UHGV virus genome: UHGV-1419674
Length of the DNA stretch: 24,307 nucleotides
Reading direction: 5' to 3' (one strand)
Origin: a virus
A program made the translations under genes and the position numbers. The notes below the pieces were generated by a model. That model saw only the letters and a list, made by a program, of their open reading frames with translations. It searched no databases and had not been told where the DNA came from. Of this stretch, positions 3,139-24,307 are shown piece by piece. Positions within the stretch are counted from its first letter, which is position 1, and each line of letters opens with the position of its first letter.

Positions 3139-6100
3139 AACCCCATTCTGACGCGCAGCACGTTGTTACTGTCATAGATACGAATGAGAGTGCTCGATAT
3201 CAGCATCCTCCCGCCCCCGGCCACGCCGTTAATTTCGAACGTTCCGCCCTTATCAAGCTTCCAGCCTGCAGTACCAGCCACATAGTTATTCGACTGGATA
3301 TAGTTGCCGATTTTGGCGTTCTCAATGGTGCCGTCCTGGATGAAGCTGGCCCGGATGAATGTCTGCCCGTTCTGGATCACAAACGGCAAAGCCACGCTAT
3401 TTCCGGCTGCCGTGGTGACGGCGAAGCGATCAGCCAGGAAGATAACCTGCGACTGCATGCCGGATGGCGTATTCTCCACGCCGATACCCATCCCCGCGGC
3501 GTAATACTGACCGTTGCTGGAAACGCCAACCTTGATGTTGTACATCGCGCTGAGGTCGCCATTAACGTTGGCTATCGCCTGAGCGTTAGTGGTGATGGCG
3601 GAGGTATGCCCGTTCACCGTCGCCGTTATGCCGTTTATCTGCGTGGCCGTAGCCTGCTGATAGTCGGAGAACGTCTGATTCAGGCTGTTTATGGATGCCT
3701 TGTTGCCGTTGACATCCGTCTGCAGGCTCAGCAGAGAACGCGCCGTTGCCTCCTTCTCGTTAACGATTACCTCATCAATACGATCCAGCTGCGCACTGTT
3801 CCCTGCGACCGAAGCTGACAACGATTTACGCGTAGCCACTTGTGCCAGCCCGTTCTGGATAATTGCGATAGCAGAGTTCTTCACCCCGCCCGTCATGCCG
3901 TCCATAGACACGCTGATGCTGTCGATTCGCTGGCCCAGTGCGGTATCAGCAGTCGCAACAGTCTGCTCAAGATCTGAGAGAGAAGACGACACATCACCGA
4001 CCGTGCTAGAAAGCTCATTAACGCTGGTCTGAACCTGCCCGATGTCCTGCGCGTTTTTTGCGATTTCCTGCGCCTGGAGTTCAAGTTCATCGTTGGCCTG
4101 TTTGATGTCGTCAGCCATGCCAGCAATTTTTTCATTGCTGTCCACAGCGTTCTCGATCAGGTCTTTGAACGTCTCAGATCCTTTGATGTCTTCAAGGATC
4201 ACATCTGTGATGTCAGAAACATCGATACTGGCCTGCCCACGAACCCAGCCGGTATAACCTGACTCGTTACCGCTGCGGTCAACCAGCTGCGCGCGGTACC
4301 AGAAAATCTGCCCAGCCTTAAGGCCCATCTGCTGATATTTGCGCTGCGGGTAAGGCACATCGGCCAGCAGCATGGCATCGTCTTCAGTACCGGTCAGGCT
4401 GTACTGAATTTCCGTCTTCAGCGTGTCGTCGGTATTCGCCGGGAATCCCCAGTTCAGCTCGATACCGAACACCACGTTTTCAGAGGCGATAAAGCCAACC
4501 GGCTTCGGTGGATTGCCCACTTTACCAGTCAGCGTTTTCTCTTCTGAATAGCCCCATCCGGATGAAATTTCTGCGGCATTGATGGCGCGTACACGTACCA
4601 GATAGCGCCCGGCATAAATCCCAGGAACGTCGAATGACGTGGTGGAACTGCGCGGCACGTTAACCCAGTTCCCGTCGTTGCGGCGCCATTGCGCTTCATA
4701 GGCGATAGCATTCTGCGCCTGGTCCCAGCTCACGCGCATGGTTTCGACGCTGATATTCTGCTGCACCACCGAAAACGAACTGATTACGATGTTGTCTGGC
4801 GGTGACTGATTGCCCGGCGGGATCACGCTCACCGGCCGCTGGTCAATAATGGCTCCGGTATCGATTCGGGCATATTTATCCGGATCGTGCCATGCACCGG
4901 TAATGGTGAAAGTGCCATCATCGTTATCAGTGACGCTCACAACACGGTACTGCTGTGCGTACAGTTCGTTTGACTCAACCACCCAGACAGCTTCGGCCTG
5001 CGGCGTCTCACTGTATGCGGTGGTGACTGTGACCGATTCCCCGTTAACCGCCTGAATTGTCCTGCTCTGTGACGCTCCGGAGGGAAGGTTGAGGATAAGG
5101 CGATCACCTGCTGCCGCATCAGCTACACGGTCAAGTTTGATAACGCGACCATTAACGGCGCTGATGCGTCCGCCCATAACCTTTCCGGAAAGCAGCTCGT
5201 CTGCCACAGCGATGATATAGCCAGGCTGCGGTATGTTTCCGTCCAGCCCGACATCGAACGAAACAACGCGATCCTTGTTGTTGGTGAGAATACCCCAGCG
5301 CCCCTTTCGGTTCGCTTCTGACTGTCTGGTACAACCAATGGCTGTCATTTCGAGCTGATTTGTGCCAAAGCGAGCAACGAGATCCTGCTCAAATACAGGC
5401 TCCATCGCATCCGCGTAGGCATTACCCGGATCGGACCAGGAAACCAGTGCTGTGGTATAGCGGGTTTTCGTGGTGCTGCCCGAATAGGTAAAGCGCCCAT
5501 TAACCACGTTTGCACGCGTGTAGCTGTAATCCACATCGCGGGGCATATCCGCCAGCGCAACGATTTGATCGCCACCCCAGTAAGTCATGCCCCGGAATAT
5601 CGCCGCAAAATCTCGTAACACGGTATAGGCGTCATTCCTCTCCTGCACATACACGTTGCAGGTATAGCGAGGCTCAGTGCCGCTACCGCCTTTACCATCA
5701 GGAACCGGCTGATCGCAATATTGCGCGACCTGGTAAAGCGTCCATTTATCAATATTGGCCGCCGTCAGGCGATTGCCCAGCCCAAAGCGGTCGCTCACCA
5801 CCAGATCGTAAAAAATCCAGGCTGGATTATCCGTCCACGCCCACTTAAACGCCCCCGTCCATGTGCCGCTATAGGTGCGGGTCTCCGGGTCATACGTATC
5901 CGGAACGCGGATTACACGCCCTCGCGGTTCGCAGGATATTTGCGGGATAGAGCCGTTAAACTGGCTTGAGTCGAATTCGATGTACAGCAGCGCGGTATTT
6001 GGATAACGCAGTTTGGCGTCAATGACCTCTGTATAGCTCTGCAGCGTCATCGTGTCACCAATTTTCGCGCTGTTGGCATCCGCCGTTAGCTTACGCAGGC

Positions 6101-22130: not shown

Positions 22131-22142
22131 CGGACGCCGCCC
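22131..22142 (-). other. cosN: Predicted 12-nt cohesive end (cosN) GGGCGGCGTCCG on the minus strand
   Basis: Corresponds to lambda GGGCGGCGACCT with two differences at positions 10 and 12; flanked by the conserved GTTACG right-end sequence. Confidence 0.7.
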
Positions 22143-22172
22143 CGTAACAAGGCGGATCGCCGGAAAGGACCC

Positions 22173-22197
22173 GCAAATGATAATGATTATCATTTGC
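22173..22197. repeat. Perfect 25-bp palindrome GCAAATGATAATGATTATCATTTGC upstream of cosN
   Basis: Read directly from the sequence; lambda has an imperfect version (GATAATGATTATCA) at the same position of its right end. Confidence 0.9.
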
Positions 22198-22243
22198 TGG
22201 AATGCGACTTGATTCGCACCCATTTGGACGTCTAAACGTCCAT

Positions 22244-22711
22244 TCATCGCAACAGCGCTGACCATATCGTGCCACCTGGCCGAAGACTCTTCTTCAGTTC
22301 CTCGGACACAACATCTGAGATCGCTTTTACCATTTCAGGGGATAGCTTCACGCCGGTCTTAATTTCGGGACAGATGCCAACATTGATGGCATAGCCTTTT
22401 CGTGGGTCGTTCTCTATCCGGCCAAACTGAATATTTACAGAGCCACCAATATAACCACCAGCAGGAACACCAAAGCGCGTATTCACCAGGTGCTTAATGG
22501 CGAACTCCTGCCCTTCAGCGGTCAGGAAGGTGTAATAATTTTCCTTTTGATACTCCGTCGCGGTATGGCGTGTTTCAGCGAATCCCAGCTCTAGAAGCTC
22601 AGCAGCACCAGATTTGGCTGGCAGATCACCAGACTGAAGCGCGCCACGGAAAAACAGCGCATACAGAACATCCGTCGCCGCGCCGGACAACGTGATAATT
22701 TTATGACCCAT
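22244..22711 (-). CDS. Hypothetical protein (155 aa) immediately upstream of cos; possibly DUF1398/YbcV-like by position only
   Basis: Good RBS (AAGGAA, 7-nt spacing); no TM segment or signal peptide; sits where lambdoid phages carry small accessory genes between the lysis cassette and cos. Family assignment not verified. Confidence 0.55.
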   Translation of the reverse strand: MGHKIITLSGAATDVLYALFFRGALQSGDLPAKSGAAELLELGFAETRHTATEYQKENYYTFLTAEGQEFAIKHLVNTRFGVPAGGYIGGSVNIQFGRIENDPRKGYAINVGICPEIKTGVKLSPEMVKAISDVVSEELKKSLRPGGTIWSALLR

Positions 22712-22824
22712 GATTTATTTCCTTTTAGGCGTGAGCCTGTCGCACGGCAAAGCCGCCGAAAGTTAACGGTTTGCCCAGGCTCACAGCTGAAAGACTTTCT
22801 ACGATGTGCGCGTGCGATGCGCAT

Positions 22825-22847
22825 AAAAAAGCCGCGTGATGGCGGCT
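22825..22847 (-). terminator. Terminator-like hairpin (RNA: AGCCGC-CAUCAC-GCGGCU followed by U5-6) between the small-ORF island and the 155-aa gene
   Basis: Stem 22830-22835 and 22842-22847 with an A6 run at 22825-22830 on the plus strand. Confidence 0.45.
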
Positions 22848-22976: not shown

Positions 22977-23237
22977 ATGTCAGAAGGTTTTGGTTTAAAA
23001 GAAAAGGTTGAGCAGTTAGAAAAAGAATTAGCCGTACAAAAAATAGCAAATCAGCTTGCTTTTGGAGCACTAATTAAAGCAGTTAATGAGCTGTACCCGA
23101 ACAAAGATTTATATGATGGGTTGACAAAATTTGTCCAGGAAAAACTTGATCCTGAACGTGTTAAAAACATCCCTAATCTTCACGAGGCCTTTCTAGAAGC
23201 TGCGAAAATACTGAGGACTGACGCATCTCCTGAATAA
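22977..23237 (+). CDS. Hypothetical small acidic protein (86 aa) in an AT-rich island, opposite strand to the late genes
   Basis: AAGGAA RBS 7 nt upstream of the ATG; long ORF in AT-rich DNA where stop codons are frequent; no signal peptide or TM segment. Confidence 0.5.
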   Translation: MSEGFGLKEKVEQLEKELAVQKIANQLAFGALIKAVNELYPNKDLYDGLTKFVQEKLDPERVKNIPNLHEAFLEAAKILRTDASPE

Positions 23238-23331
23238 TTTTATCAACAAAGGCAGTTGTGTCCTCTTGCTTTTCATTCACAATGCATGTGACTGCCTTTT
23301 CTAAAGCTGTAATTCGTTCTTCAAGTGTCAT
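23173..23331 (-). CDS. Hypothetical small acidic coiled-coil protein (52 aa from the ATG at 23331)
   Basis: AGGAG RBS 7 nt upstream of the ATG at 23331 (the ORF-track start at 23355 is a TTG); 3' end overlaps the convergent 86-aa ORF by 65 bp. Confidence 0.4.
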   Translation of the reverse strand: MTLEERITALEKAVTCIVNEKQEDTTAFVDKIIQEMRQSSVFSQLLERPRED

Positions 23332-23364: not shown

Positions 23365-23429
23365 CCCCGCATTTGCAAGTCCTATTTATACCCCGCAGGG
23401 GATAAAAACCATATTATCCGCTTGCGGGG
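23365..23429. promoter_or_regulatory. Cluster of CCCCGCA motifs including the imperfect inverted repeat CCCCGCAGGGGATAA-N8-TTATCCGCTTGCGGGG; candidate operator or structured element upstream of the 52-aa ORF
   Basis: Motif copies at 23365-23371 and 23391-23397 (plus) and 23423-23429 (complement); inverted-repeat half-sites at 23391-23405 and 23414-23429. Confidence 0.3.
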
Positions 23430-23471
23430 ATAACCATTATCAAGCCCACCAGTAGATGGGCTTTGTAATGG

Positions 23472-23729
23472 CTACTTCGCTTTTGCTTCCGCTCGCTTAC
23501 GCCGGCGCTCTTCTTTCCTCTCGGCTTTTGCCATGTCCATGAATGCCTGCATGATCGAGTTCCGCATCATGTAGCTAACAAAGTGATGATTGACACAGCC
23601 GTTGAGGCGCAGCTGCTCGCCAAACTCATCCACCGAGGCCAATGCTTCCATCATGCCCTTCTCGCCTTTCATGAACTCTGAGAAGTCGCGCCCCGCTCTG
23701 GAGGCGCATTCTATTATTCGGGTGCTCAT
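23472..23729 (-). CDS. Hypothetical protein (85 aa) with a highly basic C-terminal tail, translationally coupled to the upstream KilA-N gene
   Basis: ATG at 23729 lies 2 nt after the KilA-N gene stop (TGATCATG); C-terminus KAERKEERRRKRAEAKAK; followed 8 nt after its stop by a 7-bp stem-loop (23442-23463). Confidence 0.55.
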   Translation of the reverse strand: MSTRIIECASRAGRDFSEFMKGEKGMMEALASVDEFGEQLRLNGCVNHHFVSYMMRNSIMQAFMDMAKAERKEERRRKRAEAKAK

Positions 23730-23731
23730 GA

Positions 23732-24307
23732 TCAGGCCGCCGCATAGAGCAATTTCATCTGCCCTTTCACCGGGAATGCCGACATGCAACGCGCTTCGAA
23801 ATCACGATAATCAGAGCACCCATTGGCAATGCTGGTAACGGCAATGATCTGTCGCTCAACCAATGTCAGCGCGTCAGGTTTAAGGTGCTGATGGATTTTG
23901 TCTCCCGCAGCCAGCCGTCTTTTAACCTCTGCATATACTTCTGGTGGTAATACCGGGCCATATACCCACTTGGCACTGATCATCCCAAATAGTGCGGGGC
24001 GACGACCTGGTCGATGACGGGGCAGCCCTGACATTTTGAACATCGCAGAATAAAACGGATCGCTAAACCTCTTTTCCCATGGCTGAGATTTATCCAGAAG
24101 GAAAATAGCCTTTATTCTTTCATCGTCGATATGATGAACGGAACCCTGAATGATTGCGTCAATTTGCTCATCACACCAGATCTCAAAATCTACAGAAAGC
24201 CATCGAGCAAATCTGACCGCCAGTTTTGGGTGAAGCCATGTTCCGCCGCCACGGTCTTTGCGAGCGCGGCTGGTTTTTACATATGTGATATTCCCATATC
24301 TACTCTT
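23732..24307 (-). CDS. KilA-N domain protein (antirepressor-like), partial; N-terminus lies beyond the window end
   Basis: The reading frame is open from 23732 to the window edge with no in-frame start codon upstream of 24043; the translation contains GTWLHPKLAVRFARWLSVDFEIWCDEQ, matching the KilA-N signature as recalled. The ATG at 24043 has no RBS. Confidence 0.65.
   Translation of the reverse strand, partial: KSRYGNITYVKTSRARKDRGGGTWLHPKLAVRFARWLSVDFEIWCDEQIDAIIQGSVHHIDDERIKAIFLLDKSQPWEKRFSDPFYSAMFKMSGLPRHRPGRRPALFGMISAKWVYGPVLPPEVYAEVKRRLAAGDKIHQHLKPDALTLVERQIIAVTSIANGCSDYRDFEARCMSAFPVKGQMKLLYAAA

Follow-up and report, generated by a model that had tools for sequence, protein, structure and literature searches.

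The present analysis concerns a 24,307-nucleotide (nt) stretch of the virus genome UHGV-1419674, referred to as the window hereafter. At its high-numbered end, the minus strand of the window carries two closely spaced genes: a large gene that encodes a KilA-N domain joined to a P63C domain and, directly behind it, a small gene that encodes a protein of 85 amino acids (aa). The latter is referred to as the partner gene. A KilA-N gene was found directly upstream of the partner gene in every locus collected, and the KilA-N genes are themselves preceded by an intrinsic terminator and a long RNA hairpin (the leader), which is predicted to sequester the Shine-Dalgarno (SD) sequence of the next gene. 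With somewhat more confidence than doubt, we regard the pair as one functional two-gene accessory cassette of the DNA-binding type, which is under the control of the leader in the late operon of a lambdoid prophage. The positions of the features are collected in Table 1.

The 88 loci were collected by the partner-gene sequence from viral contigs, reference genomes and annotated records. Three features were found among them. One is that, in 88 of 88 loci, a KilA-N gene lies directly upstream of the partner gene and on its strand. Another is that the spacing is tight: the two genes are separated by 2 nt in 14 loci and overlap through ATGA (−4 nt) in 72, and the remaining two loci have a truncated KilA-N open reading frame (ORF) and a gap of 45–51 nt. 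The last is that the KilA-N partners are of at least three kinds: the 242-aa KilA-N+P63C protein, a divergent 251-aa KilA-N+P63C protein (Scandinavium, Trabulsiella and Klebsiella) and a 165-aa KilA-N+ORF11CD3 protein (O157:H7 and many other prophages). Between the ORF11CD3 type and the HK97 type, the KilA-N domains are 24% identical and the proteins are unrelated beyond them; their small partners are 97% identical. The O157:H7-type gene (WP_000839224 type) shares with the HK97 type the site after Rz, the leader architecture and the 85-aa partner, while it differs from the gene in the window in having ORF11CD3 in place of P63C and the ATGA overlap in place of the 2-nt gap. The pair of the Klebsiella phage contigs is not behind lysis genes; its neighbours are a tail-chaperone-like gene (DUF6246) on one side and a gene of ~885 aa on the other, and two such contigs have an otherwise identical context and an identical small protein together with different KilA-N partners.

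A second sample was obtained by scanning viral contigs for the pattern of one sequence subclass of the leader (at least 120 matches, 80 of which were looked at). Among these 80 loci, picked by the RNA pattern only, the partner gene was found behind none of the 54 Rha+ORF11CD3 genes. It occurred twice, each time with a KilA-N+ORF11CD3 gene before it; in addition, one fusion protein had a distant relative (E 9e-8) as its N-terminal domain. In none of the sampled loci did the partner gene stand alone or follow a gene of another type. From the 88 of 88 and 0 of 54 loci and the changes of position, therefore, the partner gene tracks the KilA-N domain, and not the C-terminal domain, the genome position or the leader. 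A preliminary description of the window had called the two genes coupled and had suggested a two-component module; the tight spacing bears out the former, and the synteny, with the KilA-N gene always upstream across positions and partner types, supports the latter. It is highly improbable that the two are unrelated neighbours whose adjacency is a frozen accident of lambdoid mosaicism. The predominance of closely related E. coli prophages among the sampled loci and the frequent occurrence of KilA-N+P63C genes without the small gene would suit such an accident; however, the adjacency persists with KilA-N partners that are only 24% identical, across several genera and two genomic contexts that are unrelated, every locus with an intact KilA-N ORF has a spacing of +2 or −4, the small gene has the exclusive association described above, and a fused relative of the small protein adjoins a KilA-N+P63C gene.

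The large gene has no stop on the minus strand over 191 codons from 24307 to its TGA (23734–23732), and its reading frame includes GTWLHPKLAVRFARWLSVDFEIW. The match to the 244-position profile of PHROG 1136 (function unassigned; E 6.5e-98) runs from position 53 to the end, and therefore ~51 codons are missing from the window. The window edge (24307) cuts off these first codons together with the leader of the gene and the terminator upstream of it, and the part within the window is the C-terminal 191 of 242 aa. In the locus of a 99.9%-identical E. coli prophage (L002), the gene is intact with 242 codons. The partial protein matched Pfam KilA-N (PF04383) over residues 7–54 (E 6.8e-11; 42.4 bits against a cut-off of 23.8) and Pfam P63C (PF10546) over residues 66–141 (E 5.2e-11; 43.5 bits against a cut-off of 26.1), and the intact protein gave a full KilA-N match (E 1.2e-22; 80.2 bits; profile positions 4–106) as well as the P63C match. 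In the structure model, the KilA-N domain has an APSES-like alpha/beta fold of the DNA-binding type. No similar solved structure was found for the P63C domain, and a search of solved structures by sequence gave no match for either the large or the 85-aa protein. The profile matches and the model thus show the large protein as a predicted APSES-like KilA-N domain of the DNA-binding type joined to a helical P63C domain, an architecture found in 821 clusters.

The preliminary description had placed here a KilA-N frame open to the window edge with its stop at 23732, followed 2 nt later by the ATG of an 85-aa protein with a basic tail, and these coordinates and the spacing proved to be exact. As to the naming of the large gene, KilA-N was upheld, since the Pfam scores exceed the curated cut-off for the partial and the intact protein alike; the P63C domain had gone unnamed. 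The early in-frame stop upstream of the window edge that would have spoken against KilA-N is not seen in L002, where the gene is an intact 242-aa ORF with KilA-N.

The partner gene starts with the ATG at 23729, two bases (TC) past the KilA-N stop, and extends over 85 codons to its TAG (23474–23472). PHROG 875 covers its product end to end (E 1e-53). The family comprises 137 clusters, nearly all from Enterobacteriaceae with one from Rouxiella, and is narrow because only 21 representatives were found among 1.84 billion representative proteins; its near-invariant motifs are ECASRAGRDFSEF.KGEK and GCVNHHF. The differences among the partner-gene copies are biased toward the third codon position (133/85/281 at the first, second and third positions), and the differing codons include 195 synonymous and 167 non-synonymous ones. 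The AlphaFold model has a predicted local distance difference test (pLDDT) score of 93.7 and consists of three helices, the last of which (residues 48–84) bears the basic C-terminal tail KAERKEERRRKRAEAKAK. A fold search with this model found generic helical bundles only. Taken together, the PHROG match, the family conservation, the third-position bias and the confident model establish that the 85-aa ORF is a real gene. The residues C8, C45, H48 and H49 are conserved among the close relatives; a zinc site at these positions is doubtful, as they are lost in the T5orf172-fused relatives. The HK97 reference copy, HK97p61 (L001, NC_002167, 4579–4812), is 77 aa long and has an unrelated C-terminus, …SYMDAELDHAGIHGHGKSREERRAPA. 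This form is a frameshift relative to all the other copies; either the record of 2000 contains a sequencing error or the gene has truly been inactivated.

The most distant relatives of the 85-aa protein (E ~1e-5 against the whole library) are proteins of 164–179 aa, in which the helical module is N-terminal to a T5orf172/MUG113 domain (GIY-YIG clan). One such fusion gene lies between lysis genes (plus HicAB) and terminase. Another lies among tail genes, close to a P22-type immI region, and the next gene downstream of it, ~230 nt away, is a KilA-N+P63C gene. In the phage ICP1, T5orf172 proteins are regarded as homing endonucleases, and the satellite protein CapR is a stand-alone N-terminal DNA-binding module of this kind (PMC8096241). 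A domain-shuffling network of phages that has been named the Bro network was described in PMC10111431. By analogy, the 85-aa protein may be a stand-alone targeting or adaptor module of this network. Like CapR of the satellite PLE, it is a small stand-alone counterpart of the T5orf172 N-terminal module (PMC8096241); unlike CapR, it is partnered with a KilA-N protein and not with a satellite regulator.

The region 5′ of the KilA-N gene has a common layout in every case examined in the E. coli and Klebsiella contexts. It is composed of an intrinsic terminator (AGCCTCGC...GCGGGGCTTTTTT), a short palindrome (GCGCA-N6-TGCGC, or TTGCC-N7-GGCAA in the Gilliamella-type loci) and the leader, an irregular hairpin of ~100 nt that ends ~10 nt 5′ of the start codon. 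The leader region in L002 (L002:5660–5860) has a folding energy of −69 kcal/mol (z = −3.4). For the analysis of covariation, we aligned 25 leaders of <90% mutual identity from hosts as diverse as Escherichia, Klebsiella and Gilliamella-type loci. RNAalifold predicted 20 pairs in this alignment, 17 of them with compensatory changes. A direct count gave 93.3% of cells paired versus 69.8% in shuffles, and the covariation score was 0.668, a value reached by none of 500 shuffles, versus 0.236 in shuffles; the score fell to 0.07–0.20 once the 3′ partners were slid by 1–3 columns. The strand that folds is the sense strand of the gene, as judged from the G-U pairs. In the single-sequence folds, the outermost pairs join CCUUU/CUUUU with the AAAGG SD sequence, the lower stem has 14–18 bp, a 6–7-nt internal loop lies on the 3′ side, and the upper stems contain conserved GAG and GGGC(U/G)G. 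The covariation and the folds thus show a hairpin that is predicted to sequester the SD sequence of the next gene. A scan for sigma-70 consensus sites between the terminator and the ATG (L002 5692–5848) found no promoter-like site.

The leader is not confined to the KilA-N genes. A covariance model, R1, built for it found the leader before all KilA-N genes (72–104 bits) and also before a T5orf172 fusion gene (L180) and before HNH_3/AP2 and HNH/His-Me genes (L087, L008 and L159). In the 80 loci of the pattern scan, the distance from the leader pattern to the next ATG was always 21–24 nt, and a terminator-like element was found 5′ of the pattern in 77. Besides the Rha+ORF11CD3 genes, the genes behind it were 15 of KilA-N types and 4 T5orf172 fusions, and the remaining 7 comprise one unclassified family of 198 aa and further proteins of the Rha or ANT type. 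Hence Bro-network genes and free-standing endonuclease genes have the leader in common as a cis element. We are slightly inclined to regard it as a real, undescribed family of cis-regulatory RNAs shared by the Bro-network genes. Rfam gave no family match for the leader in six loci. In a locus of Scandinavium hiltneri (L008 2561–3250), a full leader is followed by an HNH_3-type gene and then by the KilA-N+P63C gene, which retains no more of a leader than its last ~35 nt; this arrangement resembles the insertion of an endonuclease gene into the leader region. One copy of the leader lies within the window, where it ends at the ATG of a 155-aa ORF and is itself preceded by an intrinsic terminator. 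This ORF, which matches PHROG 16910/17079 and whose homologue in mEp213 is labelled as similar to a phi80 protein, had no match in Pfam, NCBIfam or PADLOC. Because it has its own terminator-plus-leader unit, the 155-aa ORF is probably another accessory gene under leader control.

The right-hand end of the cassette is also well delimited. Directly 3′ of the partner-gene stop lies a hairpin, AAGCCCA-N8-TGGGCTT, which is not a canonical intrinsic terminator because it lacks a T-run. Similarity of the HK97 type stops at 23435, and similarity of the mEp213 type begins at 23470. The same hairpin is also found behind the partner gene in O157:H7 and at the empty site in mEp213 (...CAGTTCATTACAAAGCC...), where the hairpin and everything downstream are present and the cassette is absent. 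It follows that the pair is a discrete unit, which some relatives have and others lack. With a moron it has in common the upstream terminator, the downstream hairpin and the absence from mEp213 at the same site; a sigma-70 promoter of its own was not found in the consensus scan described above.

Two kinds of repeated sequence were noticed around this boundary. A 9-bp direct repeat, CATTACAAA, flanks the cassette in one phage lineage (left junction in L027 and L096), and a single copy is present at the same site in the cassette-less mEp213 (L183 2495–2510), which looks like an insertion/deletion scar. The repeats were rejected as a target-site duplication, since they occur in only 2 of the 88 loci. 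Further downstream in the window, two 20-nt palindromic hairpins, TTATCCC-N4-6-GGGATAA, lie in the intergenic part of the late region; such hairpins were found after the cassette and after an Rz-like gene (also L002 5020–5037 and 5048–5065, and L003 ~3780–3830). They were rejected as KilA-N operators, for they belong to the downstream mEp213-type segment. By a strict pattern they were not found at the HK97 or Klebsiella cassettes, and looser variants follow the O157:H7 cassette.

The following mechanism may be considered for the cassette. It would belong to the phage 'Bro/KilA' domain-shuffling network and would lie between the lysis genes (outside the window) and cos. It would be transcribed late in lytic growth by Q-antiterminated read-through. 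Translation of the KilA-N gene would be kept low until the leader is opened or processed, for which RNase III, a helicase, temperature, or a trans-acting RNA or protein are candidate triggers. The 85-aa protein would then be made in a fixed ratio by termination-reinitiation past the KilA-N stop; we infer reinitiation because only a weak GGCGG sequence lies 7 nt 5′ of its ATG. It may be a co-factor or adaptor that acts on DNA together with the KilA-N domain, and host DNA, the DNA of a co-resident element and the phage's own genome are candidate targets.

Several points weigh against regarding the pair as a functional cassette under leader control. The sampled loci are mostly near-identical E. 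coli prophages. The linkage is not absolute in the reverse direction: among 79 viral KilA-N+P63C loci, ~23 have the PHROG 875 gene, ~18 carry an unrelated ~120-aa gene (PHROG 24826) at an equally tight spacing, and the rest, the Salmonella-type L125–L146 among them, have no recognised coupled partner. In addition, every combination of small-protein subtype and KilA-N partner type occurs, and there is therefore no co-variation signal between the small and the KilA-N proteins. A weak promoter would escape the consensus scan. Lastly, no functional study of the family was found in the literature on KilA-N+P63C, HK97 gp73, the mEp phages, ORF11CD3 and rha/IHF. The alternative partner of PHROG 24826 is ~117–121 aa long and was found in L100, L106, L116, L117, L120, L121, L144, L163 and L164–L174; these loci include Gilliamella-type phages.

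The company that the leader keeps bears on another explanation, namely that the pair is a selfish cassette of the homing type, which targets a specific DNA site and spreads between co-infecting phages as free-standing endonuclease genes do. We consider this unlikely. It is in line with the terminator-plus-leader unit before HNH_3/AP2, HNH/His-Me and T5orf172 (GIY-YIG clan) genes, with the homology of the 85-aa protein to the N-terminal domain of T5orf172 proteins, for which PLE CapR is a precedent as a stand-alone domain (PMC8096241), and with the polymorphic presence of the cassette, its sharp boundaries and its several genomic positions. Nevertheless, neither protein has a recognisable nuclease domain (HNH, GIY-YIG, LAGLIDADG or others), only distant relatives of the small protein being fused to T5orf172/MUG113; the flanking 9-bp repeat is restricted to two loci; and ordinary mosaic recombination at the conserved leaders would also explain the shuffling. 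The endonuclease genes of T4 are known to be controlled by hairpins that sequester the ribosome-binding site, which counts in favour of homing: in the T4-type phages, whose free-standing and intron-encoded endonuclease genes include I-TevI and mobE, the read-through transcripts of a DNA-targeting gene that is not essential have their SD sequence hidden in a stable hairpin. The T4 hairpin contains a late promoter, from which translatable transcripts arise; no such promoter was found for the leader here, and lambdoid late transcription is not known to have a dedicated late promoter per gene. A broader form of this idea would be an undescribed leader-marked class of cassettes, each composed of a terminator, an SD-sequestering RNA of ~100 nt, a DNA-targeting payload and a closing hairpin, with HNH and GIY-YIG-like (T5orf172) endonuclease genes among the payloads. 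The present pair would then be of the homing type, with P63C supplying or recruiting the catalysis; we see only a small chance of this.

The 'antirepressor-like' label that the preliminary description had given to the large gene was not sustained. Such a label would mean that the KilA-N protein inactivates the repressor of its own or a co-resident prophage or satellite, with the small protein as a modulator, and this is distinctly unlikely. Pfam showed KilA-N and P63C only, and none of the ANT/KilAC, AntA and P22_AR domains, in the large protein. Within 260 nt upstream of the gene in 7 loci, neither the CTG-N10-CAG core of a LexA box nor anything within 6 mismatches of the 20-nt LexA consensus was found. 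The antisense RNAs C4, c4-a1b1 and isrK (RF01695, RF03163 and RF01394) gave no significant score in the six leader loci, the best being isrK with 17.6 bits (E 0.95) against a gathering score of 50. Moreover, the gene is co-oriented with the late operon, as it is in all the contexts found, and is not at the immunity region, and a late-operon gene behind a terminator would be made after the lytic decision. Some evidence nevertheless points toward an antirepressor: phrog_129 and phrog_2127, which share KilA-N or ORF11CD3 parts, are labelled as transcriptional regulator or anti-repressor (the labels being annotation only), the leader also precedes an ANT/KilAC-domain gene, and the antirepressor-like AnrP of Gifsy likewise lies behind a regulatory RNA.

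The last of these systems works along similar lines. In Gifsy-1 isrK-orf45-anrP, a structured RNA keeps the antirepressor-like gene silent on read-through transcripts (PMC4825925). The IsrK/C4/AnrP system and the P1/P7 c4-ant system resemble the cassette in having a structured RNA between a terminator and the gene. They differ in that Rfam finds isrK, c4-a1b1 and C4 in Gifsy-1 (48–79 bits) and not in the leader loci, and in that here the SD sequence is predicted to pair with the hairpin itself, no trans-acting RNA being known. R1 gave no match on the isrK/C4 region of Gifsy-1. From the Rfam scan of the six loci and this result, we rejected the leader as a member of C4/IsrK or another Rfam family. 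Apart from the leader, it was observed that Rfam scores the published isrK sRNA of Gifsy-1 (L304, NC_010392, 34131–34329, minus strand) also as c4-a1b1, and the 'orf45' region between isrK and anrP as C4 antisense RNA (69 bits); this places the IsrK-orf45-AnrP switch among the c4-type systems.

A role in defence or exclusion was also weighed, in which the KilA-N protein would detect or attack incoming phage DNA, through abortive infection as in BstA or as a toxin, and the small protein would confer immunity or be the antitoxin. BstA is a prophage defence protein and, like the large protein, is of two domains with a KilA-N-type DNA-binding N-terminus (PMC8585504). The region between lysis genes and cos in relatives also holds ParDE and HicAB pairs. 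Against this, PADLOC matched only a 30-residue KilA-N stretch of PDC-S22 in the large protein (E 9e-5) and nothing significant in the 85-aa protein, no toxin-antitoxin family was matched in Pfam, NCBIfam or PADLOC, and NCBIfam gave no matches at all. BstA is a single gene, whereas here there are a coupled partner protein, a position in the late operon, a terminator and a ribosome-binding site predicted to be closed. BstA is reportedly expressed by the lysogen, and its self-immunity element is said to be a DNA sequence within the gene; for the present pair, expression in the lysogen would be disfavoured by the terminator upstream, the absence of a consensus promoter and the predicted sequestering of the SD sequence. 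Co-variation is usual in cognate toxin-antitoxin pairs, yet the KilA-N partner is freely exchanged, and small proteins of identical sequence are found with KilA-N proteins that share only 24% identity. A defence function thus seems quite improbable, and we return to the accessory cassette under leader control as the favoured reading.

The setting of the cassette was examined in the window and its relatives. The late operon on the minus strand of the window comprises Nu1, the terminase large subunit, portal, capsid and tail genes. The preliminary description had remarked that no lysis genes lie between the pair and cos, where lambda itself has them. This holds within the window; as an anomaly, it is an artefact of the window edge, and the implied loss of the lysis genes is misleading. 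Holin, endolysin and Rz are immediately upstream of the KilA-N gene in HK97, L002, O157:H7 and other prophages. Hence the lysis cassette lies beyond 24307, outside the window; because of where the window ends, lysis genes are not seen, and a lysis-free stretch between the pair and cos is normal for such phages. The DNA of the window from 24307 to 23435 is 96–99.5% identical to the HK97 gene 73 region, mEp234, mEp506, mEpX1/X2, mEp235, HK446 and HK022, all of which have the same KilA-N+P63C/small-ORF pair. The identity is 99.9% over 1608 nt to the prophages of two E. coli genomes, and at least part of the query was matched in 648 of 5426 complete E. coli genomes (~12%). HK97 (gene 73, NP_037755, and HK97p61) resembles the present prophage in the order of lysis genes, KilA-N+P63C gene and small ORF in the late-operon orientation. 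It differs in that the HNH gene (gp74) comes next and the terminase is different, while the present prophage has a lambda-type Nu1/A and an mEp213-type island.

Some further elements were noticed between the cassette and Nu1. The stretch from the cassette to the 155-aa ORF holds two small conserved ORFs, of 86 and 52 aa, whose 3′ ends overlap. The former runs against the late operon, as lambda bor does; no promoter was found for it, the promoter-like site (L002 7044–7071, plus strand) being on the opposite strand at the 3′ end of the ORF. A cosN-like sequence, GGGCGGCGTCCG, has 2 mismatches to the lambda cohesive end and lies ~175 nt upstream of the Nu1 start, with a palindrome nearby.

Table 1. 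Positions of the cassette, its leader copies and the neighbouring elements (window numbering unless a locus is given)
Feature	Position	Strand	Remarks
KilA-N + P63C gene, 3′ 576 nt	23732..24307	-	PHROG 1136; HK97 gp73 type
KilA-N domain, C-terminal part (predicted APSES-like)	24146..24307	-	with GGTWLHPKLAVRFARWL
P63C domain (PF10546)	23885..24112	-	all-helical; invariant WE..F, Y, P, K.HQ, D..DF
85-aa partner gene	23472..23729	-	PHROG 875; HK97p61 family
Hairpin AAGCCCA-N8-TGGGCTT	23442..23463	-	right-hand mosaic boundary of cassette
9-bp repeat CATTACAAA	23459-23467
TTATCCC-N4-6-GGGATAA hairpins	23386-23405, 23414-23433
52-aa ORF	23176-23331	-	PHROG 28630
86-aa ORF	22977-23237	+	PHROG 21164
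Intrinsic terminator before in-window leader	22824-22847		L002 7461-7478
In-window leader copy	22709..22812	-	R1 43.8 bits, E 3e-9
155-aa ORF	22711-22244	-	
Palindrome near cosN-like site	22170-22200
cosN-like sequence	22131-22142	-	
Nu1	21955-21410	-	
Leader copies in other loci	L002 5724-5850; L001 3724-3850; L003 2860-2991; L092 3124-3245; L164 2383-2500; L180 2881-3003

The genes themselves are already known, have been sequenced many times and are ordinary. In the databases they are named 'KilA-N domain-containing protein' and 'hypothetical protein', and recent mEp records use 'KilA-N-P63C' for the large one. The earlier annotation of the window was correct and in that sense ordinary, with a functional label that was over-specific, and the surroundings of the genes are of more interest. 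Three aspects have apparently not been described before: the obligate linkage, in one direction, of PHROG 875 to KilA-N genes, the relation of the 85-aa protein to the N-terminal module of T5orf172 proteins, and the covarying leader, predicted to sequester the SD sequence, across the Bro network. Few unexplained genes of temperate phages are as common as the KilA-N, Bro, Rha and ANT genes. The obligate partner, the T5orf172 link and the shared leader make an anonymous KilA-N protein into a defined and testable unit, for which complex formation, leader-controlled translation and possibly selfish spread are predicted. If the leader is truly a general switch, it may explain how such genes are tolerated inside late operons.

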